From positions 1,709 to 65,708 of the forward strand of contig JAGAKG010000041.1 of the NCBI GenBank assembly GCA_017625755.1: a stretch of DNA of 64,000 nt, given 5' to 3'. The stretch is from Clostridia bacterium (GTDB taxonomy: Bacteria; Bacillota; Clostridia; Oscillospirales; CAG-272). The translations under genes and the position numbers were made by a program. The notes under the pieces are model-generated. The model was not told the origin of the DNA. It saw only the letters and a program-made list of their open reading frames with translations, and made no database searches. Of this stretch, positions 7,999 through 64,000 are shown piece after piece. The stretch's first letter is position 1. Each line of letters begins with the position of its first letter.

Positions 7999-8016
7999 AA
8001 TTTCTCCTTTGATTGA

Positions 8017-8301: not shown

Positions 8302-8321
8302 AATATCTCCTCAAAAATTTT

Positions 8322-8711
8322 TTAAATATCCGAAAATGTGTCCTCGCTATCCTCCGAGCTTTCAAAAGCCTCACCGCTTACATCAACGTCGCGCGGAGCG
8401 ATAAAATAGGAATCCTTAGTTGCTTTTTTGATATTTGAATTAAGCGCGTAGGCAACACCGCTTATGAAATCTATCATTCTGCGACAGATAGCGCGGTCGA
8501 GCCCCTCAAGATTAAGAAGAACCGTCTTCCCGTCGAGCAAGCAATCTGCGGCAACGAGTATTTGCTCGAACTCAGAGGGCTTTATTACCTTTAATTCGAT
8601 ATTTGCTCCGTCAAGAGCTATGCTTGCGCCCTCGTCATTTTGCTCCTCAAGCTCCTCGTCAAGCTCGTCCTCCTCGTTATAGCGATTGAAAAATTTACTG
8701 AAAAGTCCCAT
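8322..8711 (-). CDS. sepF: Cell division protein SepF
   Basis: Acidic N-terminus followed by the DUF552 core LLDGKTVLLNLEGLD...IDFISGVAYAL. Confidence 0.8.
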   Translation of the reverse strand: MGLFSKFFNRYNEEDELDEELEEQNDEGASIALDGANIELKVIKPSEFEQILVAADCLLDGKTVLLNLEGLDRAICRRMIDFISGVAYALNSNIKKATKDSYFIAPRDVDVSGEAFESSEDSEDTFSDI

Positions 8712-33197: not shown

Positions 33198-34517
33198 ATG
33201 AGCGAAATTTTTAACGTTGGAAAAATAAAATACGAAGGACCTAAAAGCAAAAATCCGCTTTCCTTCAAGCATTATGATGCTGATATGGTGATCGGCGGAA
33301 AGACTATGAGAGAGCAGCTGAGATTTGCTATGTCCTATTGGCACACGATTTGTGGTGAGGGAACTGATATGTTCGGTATCGGCACAATAGACAAGAGCTT
33401 TGGCGAAAAGGATGCTATGAAGATAGCAGAAAAGAAGGTTCAGGCGGCTTTCGAGATAATGGATAAGCTCGGAATAGATTATTTTTGCTTCCACGACAAG
33501 GATATTGCTCCCGAGGGAGATTCTCTTAGTGAGTTCCACGCTAACCTTGATAAGATAGTTCCGATAATTAAGGAAAATATGAAGAAGTACAATAAAAAGC
33601 TCCTTTGGGGAACTGCGAATCTCTTTAATAATCCGAGATACGTTCACGGCGCAGGCACAAGCCCTTATGCTGACGTTTACGCATATGCTGCGGCTCAGGT
33701 AAAGAAGGCGCTTGATATTACCATTGAGCTCGGCGGAGAGGGATATGTATTCTGGGGCGGACGCGAGGGATACGAAACGCTTCTCAACACAGATATGGGA
33801 CTTGAGCTTGACAATATGGCAAGACTTCTTAAAATGTCTGTAAAATATGCAAGAGAGCACGGCTTTAAGGGTGATTTCTATATCGAGCCTAAGCCGAAGG
33901 AGCCTACAAAGCATCAATATGATTTCGATACTGCGACAGTAGTTGCCTTCCTTCGCAAATACGGTCTTGAAAAAGATTTCAAGATGAATATAGAGGCTAA
34001 TCACGCTACCTTGGCAGGCCACACCTTTGAGCACGAGCTTTGCACCGCGCGTATAAACGGCGTGTTTGGCTCTATCGACGCTAACCAAGGCGACTACTTG
34101 CTCGGCTGGGATACTGACCAATTCCCGACAGACGTATATAATGCTACCTACTGTATGCTTGAGGTTTTAAGAGCAGGCGGATTTACAAACGGCGGTCTTA
34201 ACTTTGACTCCAAGCCCCGTCGCGGATCTATGACTGACGAGGATATCTTCCTTTCTTATATTTCGGGTATGGATGCGTTTGCTCTCGGTCTTAAGATTGC
34301 AAACAAGATTATCGAGGACGGAAGAATAGACGAGTTCGTTGCACAGCGCTATTCTTCCTATAACAGCGGTATAGGTGCTGACATAGTAAACGGAAAAGCA
34401 ACTCTTGAGAGCCTTAGCGAATACGCGCTTTCTCTTAATAAGGTAGAGCTTAAAAAGAGTGGCAGACAGGAATATCTTGAAAGCGTTATAAACTCTATTA
34501 TGTTTGAGGGTATATGA
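33198..34517 (+). CDS. xylA: Xylose isomerase
   Basis: [60 protein letters not shown]. Confidence 0.95.
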
Positions 34518-35983
34518 TGAGATATCTTATTGGAATAGATATAGGCACATCGGGCACAAAGACCGTTTTGTTTGACGAGAACGGAAAAAATATCCGTCAA
34601 AAGACGGTTGAATATCCGATGTCTCAGCCGAAAAACGGCTGGGCAGAGCAGGATCCCGATGATTGGTACAACGCCGTTTTGGAAACGCTTAAATACGTAA
34701 GCGAGGGTGTTGAGGGAATATCGGGTATCGGCTTTAGCGGTCAGATGCACGGTCTTGTTATGCTTGACGGTGACGGAAGAGTTATTCGTCCGTCGATAAT
34801 CTGGTGCGATCAGCGCACGGGCAAGGAATGTGAGGAGATAACCGAGCGTGTCGGTAAAGAGAGGCTTGTCGAGATAACTGCAAATCCTGCGCTGACGGGC
34901 TTTACCGCATCCAAAATTCTTTGGGTGAGAAATAACGAGCCCGAAAATTATAAAAAATGCAAGCATATTTTGCTCCCTAAGGATTATATAAGATACCGCC
35001 TTACGGGAGAATTTGCAACAGATGTTTCCGATGCGTCGGGAATGCAGCTTCTTGATGTTGCCAAGCGCGATTGGTCGGATGAGGTGCTTGAAAAGCTTGA
35101 TATTGACAAGAGTCTTCTTGCAAGGGTGTACGAGAGCTGTGAGGTTACGGGCTACGTTAAGAATATCGGCATTTTAGAGGGAGTTCCCGTTGTTGCGGGC
35201 GCGGGAGATAATGCGGCGGCAGCTGTGGGAAGCGGAACTGTAACGGCAGGCAAGGCGTTTACCACGATTGGCACAAGCGGAGTCGTTTACGCTCACACCG
35301 ATGCGCCTGTTATAGATAAGGCTGGCAGGGTTCATACATTTTGCTGCGCCGTGCCGAATAAGTGGCACGTAATGGGCGTAACTCAGGGCGCAGGTCTTTC
35401 GCTTAAATGGTTCAGAAGCAATTTTGCCCCCGAGCTTTCGTATAAGGAAATAGATAAGATAGCCGAGGGAGTGTCGATTGGCGCGGATAAGCTTTTATAT
35501 CTTCCTTATCTTATGGGAGAGAGAACTCCGCATCTTGATCCAAATGCGCGAGGAACGTTTGTCGGAATCAGTGCGATACACGAAAAAAAGCATTTCCTGC
35601 GCGCGGTAATGGAAGGGGTTTCGTATTCGCTAAGAGATTGTCTTGAGGTGCTTTACGAAATGGGAATTCCCGTTTCGGAGATGCTTGCGGTCGGTGGCGG
35701 AGGAACGAGTGCTTTCTGGAGAAGAATGCTTTGCGATCTTTATAATATGCAAACGAAAACTATCGTTGCGGGCGAGGGCGCGTGTCTTGGAGCTGCTATT
35801 TTGGCTGGCGTTGGCACAGGCGTTTATCCGTCGGTTGAGGAAGCCTGCGATAGTATAATTTCGTACTCCGATCCCGAAATACCGAGCGAGAGTGCTCATG
35901 CGGAATACGAAAAATCATACGCGGTTTACCGTAACGTATATAAGGGACTTAAGGATACGTTCTCAGCTCTTTCCGAGCTTTAA
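34514..35983 (+). CDS. xylB: Xylulokinase
   Basis: [12 protein letters not shown]...GFSGQMHG...WCDQRT...[11 protein letters not shown]. Overlaps the xylA stop codon. Confidence 0.9.
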
Positions 35984-35997: not shown

Positions 35998-36030
35998 GGC
36001 GTACTTGCATAGGCAGGTACGCCTTTTTTT
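35998..36030 (+). terminator. Rho-independent terminator
   Basis: GGCGTAC...GTACGCC hairpin followed by T7. Confidence 0.75.
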
Positions 36031-36090: not shown

Positions 36091-36164
36091 CAGTGGGGCT
36101 TGGGCGCTACTTGTCCGTTTTGTCCGTTTTTTTGTGTTAGAATTTAATTGTCGCAAGGGAAGCG

Positions 36165-36512
36165 TTGCAGCGACAGCGGCGCTTTCAAAAAATGATCGGA
36201 GGGAGAAGAATAGACGAAAGAACAGTAAAAAAGCTTAAAAGGATACTTCTCAAAATAGCAAGCTCAAACGCTAACGATCTGCTTGAATGGTGTAAGAGCG
36301 CTTCGCAGGGGGAGCAGAACGCTACGGCTATGAGCGACGAGCTTGCGCTCAGCGTTTCGTCAATAAAGATGAAATCGTCGAACGGGAATCTCGAATACGA
36401 GATAAAGCTCGTTGATAAGCTGAAGGCGATAGAGCTTTTGTCGAAGCTTCTCGGCATCTCCGAGGAGAGTGAGGGGGGAGAGCTAACGATAAATTATGAC
36501 TACCGAGAATAG
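36165..36512 (+). CDS. Short terminase small subunit-like protein
   Basis: C-terminal half ...IKMKSSNGNLEYEIKLVDKLKAIELLSKLLGI matches the oligomerisation region of Terminase_2-type TerS. No recognisable N-terminal HTH. The start is ambiguous (TTG at 36165 or ATG at 36192). Confidence 0.55.
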   Translation: MQRQRRFQKMIGGRRIDERTVKKLKRILLKIASSNANDLLEWCKSASQGEQNATAMSDELALSVSSIKMKSSNGNLEYEIKLVDKLKAIELLSKLLGISEESEGGELTINYDYRE

Positions 36513-37773
36513 CGTTTTCGTGCCGATGAATGAAACGTTTCGCGAGTCTAACTCGGTAAGAGCCAGATACAGAGTGGAGTGTGGCTCTGCGGGAAGCGGA
36601 AAGAGTGTAAACGTTGCAAGAGATTATATAATTAAGCTTTCTGACAAGGCGTATTCGGGAGCAAATTTGCTTTGTGTAAGAAAGACTGAAAGCTCGCATT
36701 TTGACAGCACGTACGCGGAGCTTACAAGAGCTATAAAGGATATTTTCGGAAAGCGGTGGCAGAGGTATTGGGAGCTTTCACGATCACCGTTAAGGATGCG
36801 CTGCAGGACTACGGGAAACGAAATAATCTTTCGCGGAACGAAGGATGACAGCCAAAGAGAGAAGCTGAAATCCATTCAAAGCGCGCAGGGAAAGATAGTG
36901 TGGGTGTGGATAGAGGAGGCAACGGAGCTTGACCCCGGCGATCTTGATATAATAGACGACCGACTTCGTGGCTCGCTTGAGGAAATAAATCCAAGGCTTT
37001 ACTATCAGATAACGCTCACCTTCAATCCCGTAAGCGCAAATCATTGGATAAAGAAAAGGTTTTTCGACAAGGCGGACCCTCTTGCATATACTCACAGATC
37101 AAATTATCTTCAGAATGCGTTTATAGACTCGGAATACCACAAAAGAATGATGCGAAGACGTGAAAACGACCCTGAGGGGTATCGTATTTATGGGCTTGGA
37201 GAGTGGGGCGAGAGCGATGGCTTGATCCTGCCGAAATACGAGGTCAGAGAGCTTGATAAGCGCTTTGAGCATTACGATAGCGTTTATATCGGTCAGGACT
37301 TTGGCTACAATCACGCGAACTGTATTTTAACGGTAGGCTTTCGTGACGGAGATGCTTATGTGCTTGGCGAGCTGTACACAAGAGGACTTGACACCTCGGA
37401 GATAATTGAGCTTGCAAAGCGCGCAAAAGTATCGCAAGCGGTGCCGATGTACTGTGACAGTGCAGAGCCCGACCGCATAAGGACGTGGAAAAAAGCAGGA
37501 TTTTTCGCCGTTGCCGTTAAAAAAGAGCCCGGATCTGTCGGCGCGCAGATAGATTATTTAAAGAGCCACAGGCTTTTTATCGACACGTCCTGCGAAAATC
37601 TCATACGGGAGATAAGCATGTGGAAGTGGGAAAGGGATACTGACAGCGGAGAGTATACCGATATTCCCGTTTGCACCTGTGACGATGCGATAGCGGCGCT
37701 CCGCTATTCCATAGAGGGTGTAAGAAAAGGCAGAAGACTCCGCACAATATCAAAAAGCACACTCGGCATATGA
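36496..37773 (+). CDS. Terminase large subunit (PBSX/XtmB-like)
   Basis: Walker A GSAGSGKS, WIEEATE (Walker B-like), and a C-terminal nuclease region. Positioned between TerS and the portal gene. Confidence 0.85.
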   Translation: MTTENSVFVPMNETFRESNSVRARYRVECGSAGSGKSVNVARDYIIKLSDKAYSGANLLCVRKTESSHFDSTYAELTRAIKDIFGKRWQRYWELSRSPLRMRCRTTGNEIIFRGTKDDSQREKLKSIQSAQGKIVWVWIEEATELDPGDLDIIDDRLRGSLEEINPRLYYQITLTFNPVSANHWIKKRFFDKADPLAYTHRSNYLQNAFIDSEYHKRMMRRRENDPEGYRIYGLGEWGESDGLILPKYEVRELDKRFEHYDSVYIGQDFGYNHANCILTVGFRDGDAYVLGELYTRGLDTSEIIELAKRAKVSQAVPMYCDSAEPDRIRTWKKAGFFAVAVKKEPGSVGAQIDYLKSHRLFIDTSCENLIREISMWKWERDTDSGEYTDIPVCTCDDAIAALRYSIEGVRKGRRLRTISKSTLGI

Positions 37774-37791
37774 CGGGTGAGAAAGGAAAAA

Positions 37792-39039
37792 ATGACACAG
37801 GAACAGATCAAGGAAATTATCGAAAATTTCAATTCTCAGACACTCCCCAGGCTTAAAAGGCTCAAAAACTATTATTCGGGCAATCACGATATTCTTAATA
37901 AAACGAAGGATGCGGGCAAGCCGAACAATCAGCTCGTTAATAATTTTTGCAAAAACATCACCGACACGACAGTGGGATATTTTATGGGCACGCCCGTTTG
38001 CTATTCCTCGGACAGAGAGGAGCTTATCGGCAGTATAAGGCTCATAAACGATTATAACGACGAGCAGTTTATAAACAGCCGTCTTTCAAAGGATCTTTCT
38101 GTATACGGCGTTGCCTGCGAGCTTGTTTATTATGACGAGGATAAGATGATAAGAATAGCTCCGTGCGATGTTTTAAGCACGATACCCGTTTATTCGCCGT
38201 CAATAGATAGGGAGCTTAGCGCCGCGATAAGAATTTACGAGCTTGAAGACGCCGAGGATGAGGATACCGTAGGGCTTGAGATCTATGACAGTAATCTCGT
38301 AAGCTACTATTCGTACAACACCTCAAGCGGCGAGGCGGTTATGATAAGAAGCGTTCCGCATTATTTTGGGTTAGTGCCGATAAACTTCTATTATAATAAC
38401 TCCGATAAGACGGGTGATTTTGAGTCGGTAATGACACTTGTTGACGCGTATAACGAGCTTCAAAGCGAGAGCGTGAACGATTTTGAGCTTTTTGCGGATT
38501 CGTATCTTGCGGTTACGGGAATGAACGCGACAGACGCTGAGGACATAGCGAAGCTGCGTGAAAACAGAGTATTGCTTATTGACGAAGGCGGAGATGCAAA
38601 GTGGCTCACAAAGAGCGTGAACGATGCGTATATTGAAAACCTCAAGAAAAGAATATCATCAGATATCTACCGCTTCTCCGGCTCTGTTGATATGACGGAC
38701 GATGCAATAGGCGAAAGCGCGTCGGGAGTGGCGATAAAATACAGACTCCTTAACTTTGAAAACAGAGTTTCGGTTACGGAGAGATATTTTAAGAAATCGC
38801 TTATGCGCAGATACGAGATGATATGCAATATGCTAAACACTCTCGGAAACGACTACAGCGCGACGGAGATAAGGATAACCTTTACGAGAAATATTCCCGA
38901 AAATCCTATTGATAACGCGGATTACGCACAGAAGATGGCGGGGGTAGTGTCGAGAAAGACGCTTCTTGAAAGAATACCGTTCGTTGATGACGTGGATAGC
39001 GAAATGTCGCGGATAAGAGAAGAAAGCATTAATAATTAG
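37792..39039 (+). CDS. Portal protein (SPP1 Gp6-like)
   Basis: About 415 aa, directly after TerL. RLKRLKNYYSGNHDIL N-terminus and YRLLNFE pattern. Confidence 0.75.
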   Translation: MTQEQIKEIIENFNSQTLPRLKRLKNYYSGNHDILNKTKDAGKPNNQLVNNFCKNITDTTVGYFMGTPVCYSSDREELIGSIRLINDYNDEQFINSRLSKDLSVYGVACELVYYDEDKMIRIAPCDVLSTIPVYSPSIDRELSAAIRIYELEDAEDEDTVGLEIYDSNLVSYYSYNTSSGEAVMIRSVPHYFGLVPINFYYNNSDKTGDFESVMTLVDAYNELQSESVNDFELFADSYLAVTGMNATDAEDIAKLRENRVLLIDEGGDAKWLTKSVNDAYIENLKKRISSDIYRFSGSVDMTDDAIGESASGVAIKYRLLNFENRVSVTERYFKKSLMRRYEMICNMLNTLGNDYSATEIRITFTRNIPENPIDNADYAQKMAGVVSRKTLLERIPFVDDVDSEMSRIREESINN

Positions 39040-39047
39040 GAGGAAAA

Positions 39048-39599
39048 ATGGAGGAAGAAATTTTAAACGAGAAACAAAAAGAGGCTTTGGACACAGATAA
39101 TGTCGAGGCGAAAAACGCAGATATCGAGAAAACGGAAGCCTCCGAGGCTGAGCAGGAATTAAAAGAGCCGAGCAAGCCTGACGAGCAAAAAACGACACTC
39201 CCTGCGCCGAAAACGGAAAGCAGCGACAAGCTTGACTCGCTTGATGCGGAAATAAAAAGACTCAAAAGAGAGCTTGACGAGGAGAGAAAAAAGCGCATAG
39301 AGGGAGAAAGCAGGCTTTATTGTATGGAGGCTCTTGAAAAAAGAGGGCTTCCAAGATCGCTTTGCGAGTTTTTGACTGCTCAAAGCAACGATGAAACGGA
39401 CAAAAGAGTGGAGAGAGTGGCTGAAATTATAAAGTCCTCGGTAAACGAGGAAATATCAAAAAGGCTTCAAGGAGTGCCTCAGCCAAGCAAAAGCGCGCCC
39501 GTTATGTCAAAGAGCGCGTTTAAAAATCTCTCACTTGACGAAATGCAGCGCTTATATAAAACTGACAAAACACTTTATATGTCGCTTGCGAAAAAATAA
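39048..39599 (+). CDS. Capsid scaffolding protein (DUF4355-like)
   Basis: Acidic N-terminus, coiled-coil EIKRLKRELDEERKK, then ...LEKRGLPRSLCEFL. Position is between portal and capsid. Confidence 0.65.
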   Translation: MEEEILNEKQKEALDTDNVEAKNADIEKTEASEAEQELKEPSKPDEQKTTLPAPKTESSDKLDSLDAEIKRLKRELDEERKKRIEGESRLYCMEALEKRGLPRSLCEFLTAQSNDETDKRVERVAEIIKSSVNEEISKRLQGVPQPSKSAPVMSKSAFKNLSLDEMQRLYKTDKTLYMSLAKK

Positions 39600-39619
39600 A
39601 ATTATGAAAGGATAAAATT

Positions 39620-40690
39620 ATGCATACAATTTACGAAAATCAAATTCTTGAAAACAAAATGACCGAGCTTATCGATACTAAGCTCAATACAAGAGCTCTT
39701 ATGACTCTTGACACATCACTTGCCGAGGGCGCGGGTCTTCGCAAGGTTATCAACCGCTATACCTACAAGGGAACTGTTGAAAATCTTGAAAAGGGTGCGA
39801 AAAACACTGTGAAGGGAACTGTTTCCTTCGTACCTGAATATTATGATGTTAAGAGATATCAGCAGACCTTTGAATATAACGATATGGATGCTATGAGCGA
39901 TCCTTATATCGTTGAGGTAGCTATGAGAGGCGCGGCAAACGAGATCACAAATCAAATCAATAAGGAATACTTCAATGAGCTTTCCAAGATCTCAAGAAGA
40001 AGCCATTTTGACGGCGATGCCGTTACATACGCGGATATCGTTGACGCTCTTTCTCTTATAGATGTTGAGGTCGACAAGCAGCTCTTTATCATTATGGGCA
40101 GCGAGATGAGAAAGCAGATAAGAAAGGACCCTGATTTTGTTGCATCAAAGCAGGGCGAGATCCTTTATACAGGTCAATTCGGTACGCTTTGCGGAATACC
40201 CGTTCTCTTTTCAAAGCTCGTTGAGGGCGTAAAAGCCTACGTTACAAATCAGGATGCGGTGCGCTTCTTTGTAAAGAAGGAAGCCAGCGTTGAGCAGGCA
40301 AGAGATATCGAAACTAAGGACAACACCGTAGTTTACGAGCGTCACGGTCTTATTGCTCTTGTTGACGATACTACATCCTTGCAGATCGGTAAAAACATTC
40401 CCGATCTTAAGATATCCGTTAATGAGAATTCATCAACCTCAGACGGAATTACTATGGCTAAGGTTACTCCTACAAAATCGAACCCAAGCAATATTGTTTA
40501 CTATACTTATCAGGTAAGCGGGAAGCCGTTTTACGGAGATGCAATAAATCAATCCATTTGTGCGCAGCTCTTATCCGACGGTAATATTGCTCAGTTTAAT
40601 AAGGGTGAGAAGATAGAATTCTTTGAGGCCGAGCCCAACACGGGTCTTATTGTGGGCTATGCCGAATACACCTTTAAAACGAGCTTGTAA
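39620..40690 (+). CDS. Major capsid protein with a C-terminal extension
   Basis: 356 aa, directly after the scaffold gene. Assigned mainly by position and size; the family was not recognised by eye. Confidence 0.6.
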   Translation: MHTIYENQILENKMTELIDTKLNTRALMTLDTSLAEGAGLRKVINRYTYKGTVENLEKGAKNTVKGTVSFVPEYYDVKRYQQTFEYNDMDAMSDPYIVEVAMRGAANEITNQINKEYFNELSKISRRSHFDGDAVTYADIVDALSLIDVEVDKQLFIIMGSEMRKQIRKDPDFVASKQGEILYTGQFGTLCGIPVLFSKLVEGVKAYVTNQDAVRFFVKKEASVEQARDIETKDNTVVYERHGLIALVDDTTSLQIGKNIPDLKISVNENSSTSDGITMAKVTPTKSNPSNIVYYTYQVSGKPFYGDAINQSICAQLLSDGNIAQFNKGEKIEFFEAEPNTGLIVGYAEYTFKTSL

Positions 40691-40705
40691 TGAGGAGTGA
40701 GGGAA

Positions 40706-41035
40706 ATGGGATTTAAATCGGACAAAACACAGGACGAAATACTCAAAGAGGTATTGACGCTCCTTTCAATATCCGATAACGAAACGGAGAAAAACGTCGT
40801 TTCAAGCATCATTCCAAATGCGTTTCTCTATGCCTGCGAGTATTGCGGCATAGAGAGCGTGCCCTCGCATCTTCTTATACAGATGACGCTTGAGGATTAT
40901 TCCAAAATAACCTCAGCCGGACTTACCAAAAGATCGCTTTCATCGCTTTCCGAGGAATATCTCGATAATTATTCTCCCAAGGTTATGGCTATTCTTGATA
41001 AGCTGAGGGGCGAAAAAAGGCTTATATGTCTGTGA
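40706..41035 (+). CDS. Head-tail connector (gp6-like adaptor)
   Basis: About 110 aa. N-terminus ...DEILKEVLTLLSISDNE... is typical of Phage_connect_1-like proteins. Lies downstream of the capsid gene. Confidence 0.55.
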   Translation: MGFKSDKTQDEILKEVLTLLSISDNETEKNVVSSIIPNAFLYACEYCGIESVPSHLLIQMTLEDYSKITSAGLTKRSLSSLSEEYLDNYSPKVMAILDKLRGEKRLICL

Positions 41036-41044
41036 GGTGATGCT

Positions 41045-41374
41045 ATGTTAAAAACGAAGAAAAGACCTTACAGGGTATACAGGCTTGAAAAGGTATCGGG
41101 GGTTAGCATAGCTAAATTTATCGCAAGCGTTGGAATATGTGTGGCTATGACCTCTGACAGACGCGATATAGATAACGATGTTAAATGCGTATATCTTAAA
41201 AAAAGGTACGCAGCGGTTGCCGATTCGCATATTATAAAGGATGGAGATATAATCAGGGACGGCGATAGCTTTATGAGAGTTATCAGTGCGGTGTCATACG
41301 GAAACGAGAGCTATTTACATCTTGAAAGCACAGAGGTCTTCCAAGGAAGCGCGTTTGAATTTGAGGAGGCATAG
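41045..41374 (+). CDS. Head closure / head-tail joining protein
   Basis: 109 aa. C-terminal pattern IIKDGDIIRDGDSFMRVISAV......LHLES resembles SPP1 gp16-type proteins. Confidence 0.5.
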   Translation: MLKTKKRPYRVYRLEKVSGVSIAKFIASVGICVAMTSDRRDIDNDVKCVYLKKRYAAVADSHIIKDGDIIRDGDSFMRVISAVSYGNESYLHLESTEVFQGSAFEFEEA

Positions 41375-41375
41375 G

Positions 41376-41720
41376 ATGTTTGACGTTATTTTAAATAAGA
41401 TCAAGGACGCAGTTGACAGAAGCGTGCTTGACAGACTCGAAAAAGTAAACGAGGAGTGCGTTATCGTCAACATCGAGCCGCAAAGCTATGACGGAACAGT
41501 ATGCGATTCTACCGTAAAGGTGGTTTGCGTGTTCAAAAGCTATGAGGCATCACTCGATTGCTTTGACAAGGTGTGTGATGCGCTTTATTCGCTTCCTGCC
41601 GAGGATGGCGAGGTGCTCGATACTGTTCTTCAAAGCACGTTGATAAGATACGATACCGTATCGGGAATGACAAGACTTTTGGGAGAGTTTTCGGTATTTA
41701 CGCGCGGAGAGGAGGAATAA
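41376..41720 (+). CDS. Small neck / tail-completion-like protein
   Basis: 114 aa. GAGGAGG RBS inside the end of the previous gene. Function assigned by position only. Confidence 0.35.
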   Translation: MFDVILNKIKDAVDRSVLDRLEKVNEECVIVNIEPQSYDGTVCDSTVKVVCVFKSYEASLDCFDKVCDALYSLPAEDGEVLDTVLQSTLIRYDTVSGMTRLLGEFSVFTRGEEE

Positions 41721-41722
41721 GC

Positions 41723-42499
41723 TTGAAAATAACTAACGGCAGAGAGACTTTGGTTTTCGGAGAAGGGGTAAGACTTACGTCGTTTTCGGAGAAGGGCTTT
41801 TGGGTAGACAACAATCTTAACACTGTGGTTGACGGCTTTGGCTATCACAAGGAGAATGCTAAGGTCGGCGCGAAGCGAATGATTTTGAAGGGCTACATAG
41901 AAAAGGATATTGAAGCGAATAAGCGGCTTTTGAACAGAATTTGCGATCCCAGCGTTGCGTTTTGCCGGATATACGATGGGAATTATGTGCTTGAGGGAAG
42001 GCTTTACAAGGGCATAGAGTATTCGGATAGGAAAAACGACAAGCTCAAGCTGCTTGCCTTTACAGCGGAATTTTTTTGCCCCGATCCTGCATGGAAGGAT
42101 ACGGAGGAAAGAACGGAAATGCTCTATTCCTGCGGAAGCACCTCTTCGGGACAGGAGCCTCTCGTTTTACAGAACGACGGTGACAGAGAGGTCGGCTTTA
42201 AGCTTCGTATCGTTTTATCTTTGTCCTGCAAAAAAATAGAAATATCCTGCGATGACAAGAAAATAATTCTTTCGGGATCGTTTTCGGTCGGACAAAATAT
42301 CTATATAGATACAAGAAAGGGCGAATGTACCGTCAATATAACGCCTGTAAATTCAACCTCTCTTTCAAACGGAATGAGATATGTTTTGGCAGGCTCTGAA
42401 TTTTTTAAGCTTAAGGTAGGGACAAGCTCTATCGGATATGAGTTTAACGGCGGAGCAGGGCATCTTGTGGCGACATATACACAGGAGTATTTGAGATGA
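41723..42499 (+). CDS. Distal tail protein (Dit, Sipho_tail-like)
   Basis: KRMILKGYI, FFCPDPAW, LQNDGDREV, GSEFFKLKVG: the pattern of siphophage Dit proteins. TTG start 2 nt after the previous stop. Confidence 0.6.
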   Translation: MKITNGRETLVFGEGVRLTSFSEKGFWVDNNLNTVVDGFGYHKENAKVGAKRMILKGYIEKDIEANKRLLNRICDPSVAFCRIYDGNYVLEGRLYKGIEYSDRKNDKLKLLAFTAEFFCPDPAWKDTEERTEMLYSCGSTSSGQEPLVLQNDGDREVGFKLRIVLSLSCKKIEISCDDKKIILSGSFSVGQNIYIDTRKGECTVNITPVNSTSLSNGMRYVLAGSEFFKLKVGTSSIGYEFNGGAGHLVATYTQEYLR

Positions 42500-43485
42500 T
42501 GGATATAAAAATATACAATCCTGCCTTTGATCTTGAGGGAGTTATTGATTTCGTGAAGGAATATGATTATACCGAGGAGTTCAACGATTATTCGGAGTTT
42601 CATATGAGAGTGCCGAGCTCTGATAAGAACAGAGAGCTTTTTATAACGGATAATTATATTGCCTTTTCGGACAAGCTTTTTCTTATTGATCGCGTAGTCG
42701 CCTCGGAAAATGAGATATATGCAAGCGGAGTAAGCATTTTTGCGCTTTTCAGGGATGTTCTTATAGAAGAACCGCAGGTTTTCAAGACCAATCCTTACGA
42801 TACAGTCGCGGAGCTTGCCAAGCTTATCAGCATTCCGTATGCCACCTATGAGGTGTATACGATGCTTTGGAACAGCGAAATCACTTACAGTCAAATAAAC
42901 TGTGTAAATACGAGCGTTTACACCCAGATAAGAAACATTTGCAATATTTACGGCTTCGGCTTTCAGATGACGTTTTCTCCTGTTTCTAAAAGGATAATGT
43001 TTCAGATTATGCCGAAGCAGAAAAGGTACAGCGACGGCGGAAGCTTTGCTTACGCAATAAGCGATATGAGAAATATGTACGAGCGTTGCTCCGTTGAAAG
43101 CGATATGTCGAGCTATAAAAACTACGCTCATATTCCTTACGGATATATTGATGATGTATATACCTACGAAAATGTCGATCATCGAGTAAGTCCGACGAAC
43201 GAGAGAAAGCGCGCGATAAGCGTCAGTGTTCCTGCTATGCTTTCGTCAAGGGATCTTTCCGCTTCGTTAAGATATCTTGGCGAGATTGCGCTCTCTCATC
43301 ACAGGGAAATAATCAGATTTACCGTGGAGCTTTTAAAGGATGTCGATGCTTCGCCCGGGGATGTGTGCGATTTTGAGTGTAAAAGAGACGGATATTTTTG
43401 TCACGCGCTCGTAAAAAGAATAACGAGAGGAGAGAAGGACGGCGCTGCTTTTGTCAGGGTGGTGCTTGATAAGGAGCATGAATGA
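42496..43485 (+). CDS. Gp37-like (Tal N-terminal-like) tail/baseplate protein
   Basis: N-terminus MDIKIYNPAFDLEGVIDF...YSEFHMRVP...LFLIDRV resembles the ReqiPepy6 Gp37-like family that follows Dit in siphophages. Confidence 0.5.
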   Translation: MMDIKIYNPAFDLEGVIDFVKEYDYTEEFNDYSEFHMRVPSSDKNRELFITDNYIAFSDKLFLIDRVVASENEIYASGVSIFALFRDVLIEEPQVFKTNPYDTVAELAKLISIPYATYEVYTMLWNSEITYSQINCVNTSVYTQIRNICNIYGFGFQMTFSPVSKRIMFQIMPKQKRYSDGGSFAYAISDMRNMYERCSVESDMSSYKNYAHIPYGYIDDVYTYENVDHRVSPTNERKRAISVSVPAMLSSRDLSASLRYLGEIALSHHREIIRFTVELLKDVDASPGDVCDFECKRDGYFCHALVKRITRGEKDGAAFVRVVLDKEHE

Positions 43486-43738
43486 TATATCTAAGGAGCT
43501 TTGCGAGGAAAGAGCTCAAAGAACCGAAAAGCGTCTCGATAAGCATTCGTCTGCTATTGACGAGTTGTGCGCGTGCTCTGTAAAGCTTACCGAGATGATG
43601 AGAATACACAACGAAAGGATAGACGATCACGAATCGCGCTTGGGCTCGCTTGAAAAGCGTCCCGGAGATATCGTGGGAAGGGTGATTGATGCGCTTATCT
43701 CGGCGGTGACGGCGGCTATCGTTTGTATGATACTTTAG
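43478..43738 (+). CDS. XhlA-like lysis-associated membrane protein
   Basis: Coiled-coil N-terminus (RTEKRLDKH...HESRLGSLEKR) plus a single C-terminal TM (VIDALISAVTAAIVCMIL). The start is uncertain (43451, 43466 or 43478). Confidence 0.55.
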   Translation: MNDISKELCEERAQRTEKRLDKHSSAIDELCACSVKLTEMMRIHNERIDDHESRLGSLEKRPGDIVGRVIDALISAVTAAIVCMIL

Positions 43739-43752
43739 AAAGGAGGGGTATT

Positions 43753-43983
43753 ATGTTGAAAAAGATATTGAATAAGCTTTCAAGCAGAAAGTTTTGGGCA
43801 GCGCTTGTGGGCTTTGTTTCCACGATATGTGTTGCGCTCGGTGTAGATGCTCTTACGACTGAGCAGGTGTGCGCCGTTATAGGCGCTTGCGCTACGCTTT
43901 GCGTTTATATTCTTGCGGAGAGCTATATTGATGTTAAGAGCAATACATCCGAGGAGGCTGAAAAAGAAGAAAATAAATCTTAA
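43753..43983 (+). CDS. Phage holin
   Basis: 76 aa. AAGGAGGGG RBS. KFWAALVGFVSTICVALG and a second TM, followed by a charged tail. Confidence 0.65.
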   Translation: MLKKILNKLSSRKFWAALVGFVSTICVALGVDALTTEQVCAVIGACATLCVYILAESYIDVKSNTSEEAEKEENKS

Positions 43984-44052
43984 AAAACCTTTATTTTTTC
44001 CCCGTTATGTGTTAAAATTAAATTGATACAGAGAATGACGAGGTTTTGATAA

Positions 44053-44898
44053 ATGGTAAAGGCGATCATTTTTGATCTTGACGGTACGCTTTGCAATACC
44101 ATCGAGGATATAAGAACGGGTCTTAACGCGATGCTGACGAAGCTCGGATATAAAACGAGAAGCCGCGCGGATGTGATCAAATTTATAAATAACGGAGCGA
44201 AAACACTTGTACGCCGTGCCTTGCCCAAGGAGGTGCAGGGGGTGGAGTTTATCGTGGATAGCGCGCTTGAGGTTTATACTAACGAGTATGCAAAGTGCTA
44301 CTGCGAGTTTACCGAGGCTTATAACGGCATAGAATATATGCTTGCAGAGCTTAAAAGAAAGGGCTATAAGCTTGCTGTTTTTTCAAATAAGCAGGACAAG
44401 TTTGTTAAGGATATAATATCGAGACTCTTCAATAAAAAGCTGTTCTCCGAGGTGTTGGGACAGAGTGCGTTTCCTGCCAAGCCCGACCCGACGGGGCTTC
44501 ATTATATCGCGAAGCAGCTTGGTGTAAAGCTTTCGTCGTGCGTTTACGTCGGTGACAGTGACGTTGATATCAAAACGGCGCAGAACGCGGATATAGAGAT
44601 CATTGGATGTGATTGGGGATATCGCGGAGAGGAATTTCTTCGTTCTTGGGGAGCCGTAAGGATAGCAAAGCGTCCTGAGGATGTAGTCGAGCATATTCAG
44701 TTAATTGAGCTTGAGGAGCAGAAGCGCAGAGAGGAAAGAAAGCGCGCAAGAAGGAACAGACTTGCAAGAGCTTATGGCGAGGATGTTGCCGAGGAGACGG
44801 ATGAAAACGATTCTAAGACTGCGGAAGCTCAAGAGACGACAACGCAAGGCGAGCCCGAGATCACCGCAGAGGAAGAAACGGATATCACAAATGAATAA
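44053..44898 (+). CDS. HAD-superfamily phosphatase (phosphoglycolate phosphatase-like) with a charged C-terminal tail
   Basis: IIFDLDGTL...SNK...GDSDVD. The last ~70 aa are a K/R/E-rich, low-complexity extension. Confidence 0.8.
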   Translation: MVKAIIFDLDGTLCNTIEDIRTGLNAMLTKLGYKTRSRADVIKFINNGAKTLVRRALPKEVQGVEFIVDSALEVYTNEYAKCYCEFTEAYNGIEYMLAELKRKGYKLAVFSNKQDKFVKDIISRLFNKKLFSEVLGQSAFPAKPDPTGLHYIAKQLGVKLSSCVYVGDSDVDIKTAQNADIEIIGCDWGYRGEEFLRSWGAVRIAKRPEDVVEHIQLIELEEQKRREERKRARRNRLARAYGEDVAEETDENDSKTAEAQETTTQGEPEITAEEETDITNE

Positions 44899-44904
44899 TA
44901 AAAA

Positions 44905-44931
44905 AATCACGGCTTAGCACCGTGATTTTTT
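44905..44931 (+). terminator. Rho-independent terminator
   Basis: AATCACGG-CTTAGCA-CCGTGATT hairpin followed by a T run. Confidence 0.8.
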
Positions 44932-59988: not shown

Positions 59989-60504
59989 TTACAATGTGAA
60001 ACCAAGTGTACGCATCATATAGAAAAGATTTTCTGTTTTGACACCGAACACATTGGCAACATCGGGGATTTTGGCGTTCTTGCTCGGGCTACGGGGATTG
60101 AGCCCTTTGTTCGGCACTTCAAATGTGATTATGGTATATCCTTTTGCTTTCGCTGTAGATATTAACCACGGGTCAGCTACAGTACCTTTTGCCCATTCAG
60201 CCAAAGCGGAAGGCTTGTAACAAGCATTGCTTTGAATATGACCTAAGACTGCTCCGTAATGTGCTAATATGGTTGGATCTCTTCGGTCAACATAGGTGCC
60301 TATTGTTAAAGCCTCTATCCAATCTTTCAAACTATCCTCACCCTGGAGTATTTCGTCTTTGACCAAATCAAGAATAGCAATATCTCCATTTTGGATATGC
60401 TCCTCCATTTGGCTCCAAAAGCTTTCAGCAAAATCAAACGGATAATACATCAAATGCGGAGTGATAAGGGAGTTGGCATCAATCAAGAAAATTTCTTTAC
60501 TCAT
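59989..60504 (-). CDS. DUF4411 PIN-like nuclease family protein
   Basis: N-terminus FLIDANSLITPHLMYYPFDFAESFWSQMEEHIQNGDIAILDLVKDEI fits the DUF4411 pattern. Start overlaps the upstream stop by 4 nt. Confidence 0.6.
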   Translation of the reverse strand: MSKEIFLIDANSLITPHLMYYPFDFAESFWSQMEEHIQNGDIAILDLVKDEILQGEDSLKDWIEALTIGTYVDRRDPTILAHYGAVLGHIQSNACYKPSALAEWAKGTVADPWLISTAKAKGYTIITFEVPNKGLNPRSPSKNAKIPDVANVFGVKTENLFYMMRTLGFTL

Positions 60505-61679
60505 TTCAAGCCACCTCCTACCGTTTCTGCCAAATTACTAAAAGTAGAGCGGTTTGTATTTGTAAGACGGAAAGCATCCGAATATAATGTGCGACCGGCT
60601 TTAACACTACCTACGAGCATATGGAAGAATCTTTTATCAATCCTACTAGCTGCCGTGCGATAGAAATCACCGCCACCTTCTCCGCGCTCCTTCTTTCTCT
60701 TGCGAGCCTCATTGTATAATGTAATTGCTAATTGCGCAATTTTTTTATACACATCATAAGAAATAAGGTTTCCGTCGTATGCCTTTCGGGCAATTACCGT
60801 AATACCACATTTGAATTTATCAGATAAGAGCCTAATGTTCTCTTCGTGATTATCCTTGTCTTCAAGAGCGTTCCACGCATCCACAAAAGCTTGATGAGGA
60901 ACTAATATTTCGGCAGCCACAGCATTGCAAAGTGTTTCAGCTTTCTTTACTTGTGTTCCGGTACTATCGCGATCATTAAATAAGCTATTTTCCCCAATGC
61001 ATAGGTGAGTAAACTCATGAAGCAAGGAAAACAGTTTTCCGTTGGTGGAATCATTAGAGTTGATAAAAATAAGCGGAGCATATTCATCTACCACCGCAAA
61101 AGCGCGGAACTCATTAATATCTAGCGGACGGTGGGTATTATTTCCTACGATTCCGCTCATCATTACGATAGTTCCTACGTTGCTCATTGCCGTTCTAATA
61201 TAGTTGAAAGATTCCTCGGCGGTTTTGCAGGCGGTATACCAATCAATTTTTATATCTAATATTTCTCTTACTCGCTGTGCAAACTTCATAAAATTGGATT
61301 GAGATTTAAGTTCTCCAACGAAAGTCAAAGGAGTACTTCCTTCAGAAATCAAATAATCTCGGACCCAATCTTGAACTTGCCCCATATCGTGCATTGTATC
61401 CATTAAATTTCGGCTAGGTGTGTCCAAGGAGGCACTGTCCACCGTGCGAAATTCAATTAAAGACATATCTTCGGCGGGAGGGGTTTGCAAAAAGAAATAT
61501 CCCAAAGGAATGCCCGTGGCTTTGCTCACTTTTTCAACTTGATTGAAAGTTGGCGTTTTTTTGCCGTGATGCCAGGACTCCAAGTATTCAACTATTTGAT
61601 AATTTAGGGTTTCGGGCTGTATTTGACCTAGTACCCAATTCAGTATTTCAGGGGAAATACTAACATTTACTTGCATCAC
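60501..61679 (-). CDS. HTH-containing ImmA/IrrE-family (COG2856, M78) metallopeptidase
   Basis: N-terminal HTH-like segment (TFNQVEKVSKATGIPLGYFF) and the zinc motif LLHEFTHLCIG (HExxH). Confidence 0.75.
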   Translation of the reverse strand: MMQVNVSISPEILNWVLGQIQPETLNYQIVEYLESWHHGKKTPTFNQVEKVSKATGIPLGYFFLQTPPAEDMSLIEFRTVDSASLDTPSRNLMDTMHDMGQVQDWVRDYLISEGSTPLTFVGELKSQSNFMKFAQRVREILDIKIDWYTACKTAEESFNYIRTAMSNVGTIVMMSGIVGNNTHRPLDINEFRAFAVVDEYAPLIFINSNDSTNGKLFSLLHEFTHLCIGENSLFNDRDSTGTQVKKAETLCNAVAAEILVPHQAFVDAWNALEDKDNHEENIRLLSDKFKCGITVIARKAYDGNLISYDVYKKIAQLAITLYNEARKRKKERGEGGGDFYRTAASRIDKRFFHMLVGSVKAGRTLYSDAFRLTNTNRSTFSNLAETVGGGLK

Positions 61680-61714
61680 TTCACCTCCTATTACAAGTAT
61701 TTATTGTTTGATAA

Positions 61715-62152
61715 TTATTCATTGGAACAACTATCAGTATTTTTTATTCTCAAGGTAACCTTAAAATTCTCTTCCGGGAACAGCGAATCGTGTTCACGGC
61801 ATCTTGCTACCTCTGCCTTTATAACGCTCTCAACGGCGTGTTTGCCGTATTCGTCAAGGCGTAAATATGCCATAATCGTTTCGTAAAAACTTTCCTCGGC
61901 TTCCCATATGCCGAGTTGCTCTATATCCTCTTCCGTTATCTTAGGCGAAGAAGGGTCATTGGACGAGCCGAGAATATAATCTATCCGTCTATCGAATATG
62001 TCTGAAAGCGCATCAAGCGTTTCAAAGTTTGGCTCTCGTTTGCCGATCTCCCACATTGCAACCGTTCCCTTGGAAACGCCCAAAAGTTCCGCAAGCTGCA
62101 CCTGGGTCATATTCTTTTCTTTACGTAATTCTTTCAATCTGTGAGCAAACAT
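61715..62152 (-). CDS. XRE-family transcriptional repressor (ImmR/CI-like)
   Basis: HRLKELRKEKNMTQVQLAELLGVSKGTVAMWEIGKREP (HTH_3). GAGGTG RBS before the ATG at 62152. Confidence 0.85.
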   Translation of the reverse strand: MFAHRLKELRKEKNMTQVQLAELLGVSKGTVAMWEIGKREPNFETLDALSDIFDRRIDYILGSSNDPSSPKITEEDIEQLGIWEAEESFYETIMAYLRLDEYGKHAVESVIKAEVARCREHDSLFPEENFKVTLRIKNTDSCSNE

Positions 62153-62245
62153 TTCATCACCTCGCATAAATTATATCACGAATCGTGAGTATTGTCAAGT
62201 GTTTTCTAACGCTTTGATGGTGCTTGCGATATTTTTTTGAAGAAA

Positions 62246-62317
62246 AAGATAACTTTCTGTGAGATTTGCTATTGACAAAGATAACTGAATGTTGTATAAT
62301 ATACTTGTAAATCTCAC
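62246..62317. promoter_or_regulatory. Divergent switch region: consensus promoter plus repeat motifs
   Basis: TTGACA (62272-62277), 17-nt spacer, TATAAT (62295-62300). Direct repeat AAGATAACT at 62246 and 62278. Inverted repeat GTGAGATTT (62259-62267) / AAATCTCAC (62309-62317). Confidence 0.6.
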
Positions 62318-62333
62318 GAAAGGAGAGAATTTT

Positions 62334-62522
62334 ATGAAAAATGAGACAAAACCGTCGATGATGACCATCAAGCAGATAGCAAAAACAGGGCTGATGCCCG
62401 AAAATGCTCTCCGTCAACTTTTGAAGGAAGGCAAGCTGCCTGTTGTCTATATCGGCAAAAAGGCTCTCATTAACTATTCCAAGTTATGTGAACTTCTCAA
62501 TCGGCTCGGTGATACCGAATGA
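62334..62522 (+). CDS. Excisionase/AlpA-like helix-turn-helix DNA-binding protein
   Basis: 62 aa. MTIKQIAKTGLMPENALRQLLKEGKLPVVYIGKK. AGGAG RBS. Confidence 0.6.
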   Translation: MKNETKPSMMTIKQIAKTGLMPENALRQLLKEGKLPVVYIGKKALINYSKLCELLNRLGDTE

Positions 62523-62555
62523 CCGATGCAAAATTTATGGAAAGGAGGAAACGGA

Positions 62556-64000
62556 ATGAGAACTCAATACACTAATCTGCCGAGCCTGTTAAAGAAGGAA
62601 GGCTTGTTTTGCTTATGGCAATACGAAACTCGCGATGGCAAAAAGACCAAGGTTCCGTATTGTATCCGTGGTTATCGTGCTGACCCCAGAAACAAAAATA
62701 CATTTTCAAAGTTTGACCAAGTCATTAGCCTTGCCAACGGATATGACGGAATCGGCATCGGTGTTTTTGATGACATCTGCGCCGTAGATATCGACCATTG
62801 TGTAGAAGACGGAGTGCTTTCAGAAATGGCTGACGATATCGTAAAAATGATGGACTCCTATACCGAGTATAGTCCCTCCGGTACTGGTGTGCGTATCTTT
62901 TTCAAGGCAAGCGGTCTGTCCTATGACAAAGAGCGTTACTACGTCAATAATCGCAAATTCGGTCTTGAAATCTATGTTTCCGGTTATACAAACAAATTTG
63001 TAACCGCTACAGGGAACGTGCTTATTGACCGAAATATCGAAGACCGAACCGAGGCTCTTTTGCTCGTACTTGAAAAATATATGGTCAAGCCGACACAGTT
63101 ATATACTCGCCGTGAGGATGTTCCCGGTAGCTTTCTTTCAGACGAGTCCATAATTGCCAAAGCAAGCGCATCCAAGCAGGGTGAAAAGTTCTCGGCTTTA
63201 TGGTATGGCGATGTCTCTGCATACGGAAGCCAAAGCGAAGCCGACCTTGCCCTTTGCTCCATTCTTGCATTTTGGTGTGGCGGTGATATTGAGCAAATGG
63301 ATAGACTCTTCCGTCAATCTGATCTTATGCGAGAAAAATGGGAGAGGGAGGATTATAGAATGAACACATTGAACCGAGCCGTGGCAATGACCAAGGAATT
63401 TTATAAGCCTCTCGGTCGAACCGCTCCGGCAGCGGAGTTTAATGATATTTCCATATTTCTTGATGAAGCCGCTCCCGAACGCAATGACCGTTACCCTTGG
63501 ACGGACATTGGCGGCGGACGGCTATTTGCGGATTGCTTTGAGAGCATTGCCAGGTATGTCCCCGAGAAGAAGAGCTGGTACTGTTACAAAGACGGCGTGT
63601 GGTCTACCGACAGCGGTGCGCTCCGCACGATGGAACTTTGTAAGGCGTTAGCGGATGCATTAATCGTATATGCGGTATCCATTCATGATGAACGCCAAAG
63701 ACAAGAGTTTATGAAATACTGCACCAAATGGCAGACGCGCCGTACGCGAGAAACGCTACTCAAAGATGCCCAAGGCGTACACCCCATATCCCTCTCGGAA
63801 TTTGATTGCGACCCTTACATCTTTAATTGTAAGAACGGTACATTACATCTTGATACGATGGCTTTTACAGAACATCGCGCAGAAGACCGCTTGACCAAGA
63901 TCTCAAATGTGGAATATGACCCTTCCGCATATAGTTCTCGGTTTGAAAGCTTTGTATCCGAAATTATGAGCGGAGATGTCGACAAAGCGAGATTTCTCCA
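62556..64000 (+). CDS. Prim-Pol / P4-family phage-plasmid primase (3' end outside the window)
   Basis: Frame is open to the window end. AVDIDHC and SPSGTGVRIFF (Prim-Pol); SQSEADLALCSILAFW...MDRLFRQS (PriCT-2-like); DPYIFNCKNGTLHLDT (D5_N/P4 region). AAAGGAGG RBS. Confidence 0.8.
   Translation, partial: MRTQYTNLPSLLKKEGLFCLWQYETRDGKKTKVPYCIRGYRADPRNKNTFSKFDQVISLANGYDGIGIGVFDDICAVDIDHCVEDGVLSEMADDIVKMMDSYTEYSPSGTGVRIFFKASGLSYDKERYYVNNRKFGLEIYVSGYTNKFVTATGNVLIDRNIEDRTEALLLVLEKYMVKPTQLYTRREDVPGSFLSDESIIAKASASKQGEKFSALWYGDVSAYGSQSEADLALCSILAFWCGGDIEQMDRLFRQSDLMREKWEREDYRMNTLNRAVAMTKEFYKPLGRTAPAAEFNDISIFLDEAAPERNDRYPWTDIGGGRLFADCFESIARYVPEKKSWYCYKDGVWSTDSGALRTMELCKALADALIVYAVSIHDERQRQEFMKYCTKWQTRRTRETLLKDAQGVHPISLSEFDCDPYIFNCKNGTLHLDTMAFTEHRAEDRLTKISNVEYDPSAYSSRFESFVSEIMSGDVDKARFL

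Follow-up and report, generated by a model that had tools for sequence, protein, structure and literature searches.

Between xylB and the gene of a HAD-family hydrolase, a 64,000-nucleotide stretch of DNA from an uncultured Clostridia bacterium (here called the window) carries twelve phage-type genes for a head, a neck, a distal tail tip and a holin. None of the operon's genes specifies a tube, tape measure, chaperone, endolysin, integrase, replication protein or regulator, and the locus raises the question of what such a gene set could build and why a chromosome would retain it. The initial annotation proposed three answers: a decayed prophage, a domesticated locus resembling those of gene transfer agents (GTAs), and a helper-dependent satellite-like element. 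The comparisons described here argue, with high confidence, for a functional and chromosomally fixed particle operon of phage origin, with a conserved promoter that is activated in trans and with no tube or tape measure in cis. On balance we favor the second proposal, in the form of a domesticated, vertically inherited GTA-like 'viriform' with a tube-less stub tail, placed under a relocated, host-controlled activator. It is the best supported of the three because of the fixed, HAD-linked site, co-divergence with host genes, the absence of mobility and replication genes, a truncated TerS, and a sister clade that is wired to LexA.

Gene content of the operon

The operon spans 7.8 kb and its 12 genes are tightly packed on the + strand, with xylB (34514-35983) to the left and the HAD gene (44053-44898) to the right (all coordinates are those of the 64-kb window, and features are on the + strand unless stated). 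NCBI annotation lists all 12 products as hypothetical proteins; the names used here come from profile searches (Pfam and PHROG) and, for the capsid fold, from a predicted structure (AlphaFold2 and Foldseek). The open reading frames (ORFs) are all present, co-directional and in the order first proposed:

36192-36512, + strand: g1, short TerS (~100-106 aa); Terminase_2 (E 1e-5, profile positions 64-133 of 141 only) and phrog_51 (positions 154-224 of 261)
36496-37773, + strand: g2, large terminase TerL; Terminase_3 (E 8e-39) plus Terminase_3C, phrog_3717 (E 4e-80); dN/dS 0.05
37792-39039, + strand: g3, SPP1-type portal; SPP1_portal (E 6e-107), phrog_64 (E 4e-131)
39048-39599, + strand: g4, scaffolding protein; DUF4355 (E 5e-6), phrog_172 (E 2e-9)
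39620-40690, + strand: g5, major capsid protein (MCP); Phage_capsid_4, phrog_544 (E 5e-14)
40706-41035, + strand: g6, gp6-type head-tail adaptor; Phage_connect_1 (E 1.2e-4), phrog_132 (E 5e-7)
41045-41374, + strand: g7, conserved 109-aa protein kept in all loci; head-closure (stopper) candidate by position
41376-41720, + strand: g8, conserved 114-aa protein kept in all loci; tail-completion or terminator-like neck candidate by position
41723-42499, + strand: g9, distal tail protein Dit of classical size; SPP1_Dit C-terminal domain (E 9e-8), phrog_33 (E 3e-15)
42496-43485, + strand: g10, Sipho_Gp37-family protein in the Tal position; Sipho_Gp37 (E 2.4e-7), phrog_538 (E 3e-16)
43478-43738, + strand: g11, XhlA-like coiled coil ending in a transmembrane segment; phrog_937 'hemolysin' (E 3e-4, weak)
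43753-43983, + strand: g12, small holin with two transmembrane (hydrophobic) segments; phrog_297 holin (E 2.4e-4, weak)

As predicted from these matches, the encoded set is a complete complement of head and DNA-packaging genes, a neck adaptor, two conserved small proteins, Dit, a Gp37-family protein, an XhlA-like protein and a holin. The junctions at which overlaps or gaps of no more than 9 nt had been reported are all so but one: between TerL and portal (37773/37792) the gap is 18 nt with the gene caller's ATG, and 3 nt only if a GTG at 37777 is used. The g8/Dit junction is as originally described, with g9 starting at a TTG (41723) 2 nt past the g8 stop and with the Shine-Dalgarno (SD) sequences of both g8 and g9 inside the preceding genes. 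Dit is present, and the tape measure, tube, chaperones and terminator that would stand between neck and Dit in a Dit-Tal-tape measure arrangement are not.

Other absences define the element as well. No endolysin gene lies 3' of the holin, and there is no integrase, recombinase or repressor gene in or beside the block; the lack of endolysin, integrase and repressor was noted at the outset. The 12 genes and their neighbors include no replication module, and no att-like direct repeats flank the block, the only matches being short and imperfect. Its GC content is not deviant. An Rfam scan near the operon returned no RNA family, and the 64-kb window contains no homologues of the tail, lysin and fibre proteins of related elements.

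The g1 TerS lacks the N-terminal third of the family profile and, as read from its sequence, the N-terminal DNA-binding domain, so that sequence-specific DNA binding has presumably been lost. Its start codon is also unusual. In four orthologues (in loci L010, L011, L015 and L044) the conserved N-terminal frame offers none of the start codons ATG, GTG and TTG; at all loci a purine-rich SD is followed 6-9 nt later by ATA-GAC/GAG-GA (36198-36212 in the window), and the annotated ATG of the window (36192) lies upstream of that SD. The true start is possibly a non-canonical ATA at 36210, and so weak a start could keep TerS scarce.

The MCP is modeled with an HK97 fold (predicted local distance difference test score, pLDDT, 83.5) and a C-terminal all-beta domain of higher quality (pLDDT >90). 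Foldseek matches it to the NF5 capsid (E 5e-15) and to HK97, with the longest alignments to phi29 gp8 and Douge gp8, two MCPs that carry an extra immunoglobulin-like domain. The beta domain of ~95 aa (residues 262-356; 40403-40690) varies in sequence between clades; the MCPs of the chromosomal elements have it, whereas the 260-aa proteins of related true phages and prophages do not. It may be a surface adhesin or decoration domain.

The description of the three genes that follow the capsid gene as small connectors holds for g6 and lacks a significant match for the other two. Profile searches on alignments returned no Pfam, PHROG or PDB match for g7 and nothing significant in the same databases for g8; single g8 homologues match tail-terminator PHROGs weakly (E 0.07-0.1). 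The assignments of g9 as Dit-like and g10 as Gp37-like are borne out at the family level by profile searches. At 258 aa, g9 is close in size to SPP1 gp19.1 (252 aa), and its profile weakly matches the structure of that protein (2x8k, E 0.19). An exhaustive search with g10 yielded 36 representative clusters only, and 32 of the 33 members scanned (the window's g10 plus 32 hits) match Sipho_Gp37, with a best E of 8e-83, and one also matches Prophage_tail; membership of this family is solid at the sequence level. The XhlA-like g11 is 64-83% identical across lineages.

Conservation, site and selection

The block recurs gene for gene in nine other species-level loci from metagenome-assembled genomes (MAGs), and the arrangement is therefore not a matter of chance. 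A second MAG (L001) was reached through the sole close homologue of g10 and has an identical 12-gene block at the same site; its nucleotide identity to the window is 95.8% across the element and ~95-96% across the sequence on either side. Further orthologous loci came from contig look-ups and a scan of species-representative genomes; the MCP itself has more than 1,290 homologues. All 12 genes recur with order and sizes unchanged, and always with HAD behind them, in L002/L009, L004/L012, L010, L011, L013, L015 and L044, and L014 and L016 are truncated. Carriers are MAGs labeled 'Clostridia/Eubacteriales bacterium' and, where a source is stated, come from roe deer, goat or water deer gut.

The site is fixed on one side. 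HAD directly follows the block in the window, in L001 and in 7/7 complete loci of the scan; the upstream neighbor varies (xylB, MntP plus tRNAs, or UxuA), as does the gene after HAD (GH43 or TrmE). In 10/10 loci g8 and g9 either overlap or stand no more than 2 nt apart (2 nt in the window, overlapping in other lineages), with no ORF in between. In the roe-deer MAG L002, the gap upstream of the element (5720-6126) holds two tRNA genes and two matches to Gut-1 RNA (RF01706), none of which occur in the window.

The initial annotation proposed that synteny and the ratio of nonsynonymous to synonymous substitution rates (dN/dS) be compared in related genomes, and regarded inactivating mutations as a sign against function; the block proves to be conserved beside HAD, close pairs show purifying selection, and the ORFs are intact in all lineages compared. 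Between the window and L001, dN/dS is 0-0.25 across all 12 genes, and dS (0.05-0.23) is in the same range as that of the flanking xylA, HAD and GH43 genes. A second close pair, L004 and L012, gives dN/dS of 0-0.28. Between lineages every ORF remains intact though dS is saturated (0.9 to >3). TerS, TerL and portal belong to the best conserved of the 12 (dN/dS 0.05-0.18).

Divergence of the element follows that of its hosts. In the comparison with L002, identity is 83% for GH43 and 88% for SNF, two host genes, and 85% for TerL and 86% for portal, and across loci the HAD distance correlates with the TerL plus portal distance (r = 0.86). By these measures the element is inherited with the chromosome and appears to be kept functional. 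The two fastest-evolving genes are those for Dit and g10: Dit is 57% and Gp37 54% identical to the L002 proteins, where most other genes are at ~80-86%, and 30% and 21% identical to those of L004, where TerL is at 71%. This is the pattern expected of parts that would contact a surface. The locus thus has the make-up of a GTA cluster in two respects: phage-derived structural and packaging genes, without replication, integration or lysogeny genes, lie between host genes on both sides, and vertical inheritance (HAD-adjacent in at least nine lineages) goes with purifying selection on all genes.

More distant relatives place the loss of the tube in time. A related true prophage (L006) has a 260-aa MCP, four small neck genes, a tube, chaperones, a 497-aa tape measure and Dit, followed by BppU, a Prophage_tail protein and an integrase, whereas in the window element three small genes separate MCP from Dit. 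The distant chromosomal relatives L047, L048/L021 and L049 are flanked by host genes and have no tube, tape measure or integrase, which indicates that tube-lessness is a family trait older than the window's clade. They keep a fibre-like protein (with a phrog_1220-type N-terminus) and a GH25 lysin in cis, and by this comparison the loss or relocation of fibre and lysin is predicted to be secondary.

The late promoter and the surroundings of the operon

A putative late promoter lies directly upstream of TerS:

36111-36130, + strand: tandem direct repeat TTGTCCGTTTTGTCCGTTTT (two copies of GTCCGTTTT), putative binding site of an Ltr-type late activator
36135-36143, + strand: extended -10 box TGTTAGAAT, identified by inspection of the sequence, 7 nt downstream of the repeat
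Late-promoter motif as a pattern: GTCCGTTTTGTCCGTTTT-N7-TAnnnT

There is no -35 hexamer at a usable spacing. The 20-nt repeat has a single copy in the 64-kb window, and the repeat together with its spacing to the -10 box is identical, and present once, upstream of TerS in each of 11/11 distinct element loci, including the divergent L021/L048.

The same promoter is widespread in phages. The 18-mer is found in 103 IMG/VR stretches (L050-L152), 72 of them with the -10 box, and the 20-mer in at least 120 metagenome stretches (L153-L272); in phage contigs the motif precedes diverse terS-terL-portal operons. The usual phage layout has an ORF of the phrog_36 'transcriptional regulator' family (120-166 aa), which is related to Alt-like activators, and then the motif. 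Among loci with enough upstream sequence, a phrog_36 ORF ends no more than 120 nt from the motif in 46/66 viral and 23/37 metagenome loci. A module of phrog_36 gene, two copies of GTCCGTTTT, extended -10 box and terS is common to many otherwise unrelated phage contigs, some of which carry at least three repeat units. Ltr late activators bind DNA repeats upstream of terS, and through these repeats Ltr can turn on terS promoters with no other phage factor (PMC3753634). The searched literature has no mention of the GTCCGTTTT repeat itself.

The genome inspected amounts to ~78 kb, comprising the window and ~7 kb past each of its ends on a contig of the same species. Searches with hidden Markov models found no Ltr (phrog_36) gene in this sequence or in any element locus. 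With no Ltr gene in the locus, the operon must be activated in trans; with the promoter kept, the left boundary of the element falls between the ancestral activator gene and its promoter. A metagenome scan with the motif, meant to find a second locus for lysin or fibre under the same promoter, recovered none; its matches were late operons of phages and a single copy of the element already described (L153).

A sister clade of tube-less elements is wired differently. In 14/15 loci (L017, L020, L022, L025-L029, L031, L032, L037, L038, L043 and L047) the region ~100-300 nt ahead of TerS holds a sigma-A promoter, TTGACA-N17-TATAAT, with one or two LexA boxes (GAAC-N4-GTTC) overlapping it or beside it, and no GTCCGTTTT repeat. 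This promoter architecture indicates that the sister clade is under direct host SOS control. Several of these loci share a TTGTGCGAGATGCACAA palindrome further upstream.

At most loci the first ~35 nt of the predicted transcript contain a stable hairpin (36150-36190 in the window, and orthologous 5' untranslated regions). Its sequence is not conserved, and against mononucleotide shuffles, which preserve composition, its z-scores are -1 to -2.8; a role as 5' stabiliser or in regulation is possible.

The surroundings of the operon include the following features:

35998-36023, + strand: intrinsic terminator of xylB, an 11-bp stem with 7 GC pairs and a downstream T run; the element's left boundary
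44053-44898, + strand: HAD-IA hydrolase gene directly 3' of the block; HAD_2 (E 2e-37)
44901-44931, no strand assigned: bidirectional terminator-like hairpin after the HAD gene, a 13-bp stem between A and T runs

The hairpin at 44901-44931 is the first terminator-like one downstream of g12, with none between g12 and HAD, and the stretch between the holin and HAD genes has a candidate extended -10 box, TGTGTTAAAAT (44008-44018; box 44010-44018). Because no terminator follows the holin gene and this box precedes HAD, the latter may be both read through from the operon and transcribed from its own promoter, and it could be either a linked host neighbor or a co-transcribed passenger. The HAD protein was rejected as a lysis enzyme, since it belongs to the generic HAD-IA phosphatases and its gene may have a separate promoter; its NCBIfam matches to phosphoglycolate phosphatase-like families fall below the cut-off.

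Further away, the housekeeping genes rsmG/gidB, a pseudouridine synthase gene, lspA, yggT, sepF, yggS and miaA (5839-10308, - strand) place the locus in a core and probably origin-proximal region of the chromosome. At the other end of the window, from ~59989 to 64000 and beyond (L274:1-10993), GC content drops to 0.35-0.41 across a separate satellite-like mobile element. Its genes encode an XRE-type helix-turn-helix protein, an ImmA/IrrE M78 peptidase, DUF4411, a D5/NrS1-type primase, a lone Phage_capsid (PF05065), two large serine recombinases, a ribbon-helix-helix protein and a DNA methylase, and it has no Ltr gene and no GTCCGTTTT motif. The nearest regulators to the operon, HTH_3 (61715-62167) and the ImmA-like protein, belong to this element, as the initial annotation had recognized, and so do the serine recombinases, more than 16 kb from the block.

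The predicted particle and its place among known systems

If the operon is a GTA-like viriform, its products suggest the following particle. An HK97-fold capsid, its MCP bearing an extra surface beta domain, would be filled by TerL and a short TerS, reduced to its oligomerisation core, which would package any accessible DNA by the headful mechanism; a TerS without its N-terminal third fits such non-specific packaging. The neck would be closed by the adaptor, g7 and g8, and a Dit hexamer and Gp37 trimer would dock directly on it to form a stub tail with zero tube rings. Since Dit and Gp37 evolve fastest, both probably contact a variable cell-surface receptor. Release would depend on XhlA and holin, with a lysin encoded elsewhere or with host autolysins. 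Transcription would start at the extended -10 promoter, where the two GTCCGTTTT repeats fill the -35 and spacer region as the target of Ltr (phrog_36), most likely a relocated and host-controlled Ltr by analogy with GafA of RcGTA.

Several points weigh against this picture. All carriers are uncultured MAGs, so that particle, packaging and transfer are deduced from sequence. Host control is an extrapolation, as the regulator gene was not found, and many present-day phages have an identical promoter, so that an infecting phage could serve just as well as the source of the activator. It is hard to see how DNA would cross the recipient envelope in the absence of a tape measure, and tube and tape measure genes could lie elsewhere than in the ~78 kb inspected. 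The operon has no endolysin or receptor-binding fibre gene, both of which L047 and L048 keep, and a second locus must be postulated for them. At the tail, no match assigns g7 or g8 to a family or fold; the equation of Gp37 with Tal derives from family membership and position; a PDB profile search with the g10 sequence was empty; and an AlphaFold2 model of g10, built from one usable homologue, reached pLDDT 33 and was discarded.

The alternative that survives best, possible though on present evidence improbable, is a phage-triggered element: an immobile satellite, piggy-back or defence locus that stays silent until a phage of the large GTCCGTTTT-repeat group, whether resident or infecting, makes Ltr. 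It would then build its own heads and tail tips and package DNA in the doomed cell, interfering with the phage, rescuing or spreading host DNA, or both. The promoter is exactly the one that lies between phrog_36 Ltr genes and terS in phages, for which Ltr suffices as phage factor; neither the element nor its +/-10-kb flanks hold an Ltr gene; and the 20-nt site is perfect in 11/11 lineages, as expected if it has to match circulating phage activators. Yet the fixed chromosomal site and co-divergence with host genes are unlike known satellites, a pure abortive-infection role would not require purifying selection on all 12 structural genes, and the sister clade is LexA-controlled rather than phage-controlled. 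The earlier suggestion of a helper-dependent satellite-like element gains one new argument, the Ltr-type late promoter without its activator gene. Against it, every satellite mobility feature is lacking: there is no integrase, att repeat or excision function, no replication module and no master repressor. A broader proposal is more doubtful still: that this is an undescribed particle type with a regulatory logic of its own, in which a siphovirus lineage lost tube, tape measure and chaperones, leaving Dit and Tal on the neck itself, became fixed in a clade of gut Clostridia as perhaps the smallest self-contained GTA-like operon described so far (7.8 kb), and is turned on as a gene transfer or rescue device by any infecting or induced phage of the very common GTCCGTTTT-repeat group.

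A killer or other non-transfer particle in the manner of PBSX, packaging DNA incidentally and selected for antagonism or lysis-linked release, is unlikely. The XhlA-like and holin pair does resemble the PBSX lysis cassette, fast evolution of Dit and Gp37 is also expected of strain-specific killing, and without a tape measure there is no obvious injection channel. PBSX, however, kills via its contractile tail, and no tube, sheath or tape measure is present here to damage a membrane; moreover, the low dN/dS of TerS, TerL and portal suggests that DNA packaging itself is under selection.

Less likely again is a long-tailed, siphovirus-like GTA with split loci, its tube, terminator, chaperones, tape measure, fibre and lysin being encoded elsewhere in the genome. 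Known GTAs such as RcGTA and FpGTA are multi-locus, and the part of the genome inspected is limited as noted. But the g8/Dit junction is seamless wherever it was compared, L047, L048 and L049 are equally tube-less yet keep fibre and lysin in cis, the window has no homologue of their tail or lysis genes, and removal of the mid tail module alone, with Dit and Tal staying translationally coupled to neck genes, would be odd. Finally, a decaying, functionless prophage, which the many missing phage modules might suggest, is scarcely credible and we regard it as refuted, because a neutral remnant cannot explain 12/12 intact ORFs in at least nine lineages at saturated dS, low dN/dS in two close pairs, conserved gene order, junctions and promoter, and divergence matching that of host genes, with no sign of pseudogenes, relaxed selection or sporadic strain-level presence.

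With the GTA-like reading preferred, the operon has several implications. If the particle truly lacks tube and tape measure, a Dit-Tal tip can mount straight on a siphovirus neck; a long-tailed form would then have become stub-tailed in a way not recorded before, and the question of DNA delivery arises. The conserved activator site offers a direct experimental handle, in that supplying Ltr should yield particles, and two copies of GTCCGTTTT with a -10 box provide a simple sequence tag for late and orphan late operons in Clostridia metagenomes.

Among known systems, Ltr-regulated late operons of Gram-positive siphophages (RinA, ArpU and related) similarly have a repeat directly upstream of terS and a single morphogenesis and lysis operon (PMC3753634); phages with the motif encode a phrog_36 protein directly upstream, whereas the element has the promoter without the activator gene. 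Capsid-forming phage-inducible chromosomal islands (cf-PICIs) and other satellites also have their own TerS, TerL, portal, scaffold, MCP and head-tail connectors without a full tail, and here too expression may need a helper. The further traits of satellites are missing, however: the element has no integrase, no replication or regulatory module and no att site, and its distribution is not patchy. In addition, cf-PICIs lack Dit and Tal, where the element has Dit and a Gp37 protein in the Tal position. PBSX of Bacillus is likewise a host-retained, SOS-linked locus that packages host DNA and has an XhlA and holin pair, and LexA boxes occur in the sister clade here; at ~28 kb it differs in its contractile tail, sigma-like factor Xpf, repressor and amidase.

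RcGTA has a cluster of ~15 kb that includes stopper, terminator, tube, tape measure and megatron genes, and its activator GafA is encoded elsewhere. The element shares with RcGTA and alphaproteobacterial GTAs a siphovirus origin, vertical inheritance, purifying selection, a truncated TerS and the logic of Dit, hub and adaptor, and its activator gene, like that for GafA, is not in the structural locus. It differs in having no tube, tape measure or chaperones and in its promoter, which carries Ltr repeats where that of RcGTA depends on GafA and CtrA.

FpGTA of Faecalibacterium prausnitzii (Nat Commun 2026) is the nearest counterpart, and beyond it the searched literature contains no prior description of such an element. 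FpGTA forms apparently tail-less particles of ~40 nm with ~8.5-9 kb of host DNA, is near-ubiquitous within its host genus, has a TerS without an evident DNA-binding domain, and is encoded by two operons of 10.5 kb and 5.5 kb, the second with fibre, receptor-binding protein, holin and endolysin (PMC12946183). It is podovirus-derived, with an N4-gp56-family MCP, a tail nozzle and a Prp protease (PMC12946183, Supplementary Data 2). Both are chromosomal, phage-derived head and packaging operons of gut Clostridia with a truncated TerS and no replication or integration genes, and the lack of a visible tail on FpGTA particles parallels the tube-less gene set here, which is known from genes alone. The element, in contrast, is of siphovirus type (SPP1 portal, Phage_capsid_4 MCP, Dit and Sipho_Gp37), with Dit and Gp37 in place of the nozzle, and occupies one operon in which no lysin or fibre was found. 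It has neither the N4-gp56 MCP nor the nozzle nor the two operons of FpGTA, in a comparison of annotations rather than sequences, and zero NCBIfam matches to its MCP argue against the N4-gp56 family if NCBIfam carries that model. By annotation, then, the element is a lineage independent of FpGTA. GTA-like packaging of 4.6-8.9 kb of host DNA is reported to be common in gut Ruminococcaceae, Oscillospiraceae and Christensenellaceae, with loci known only for Faecalibacterium (PMC12946183), and the operon family described here is a concrete, independently evolved candidate for such packaging in uncultured gut Clostridia of herbivores and possibly of humans.

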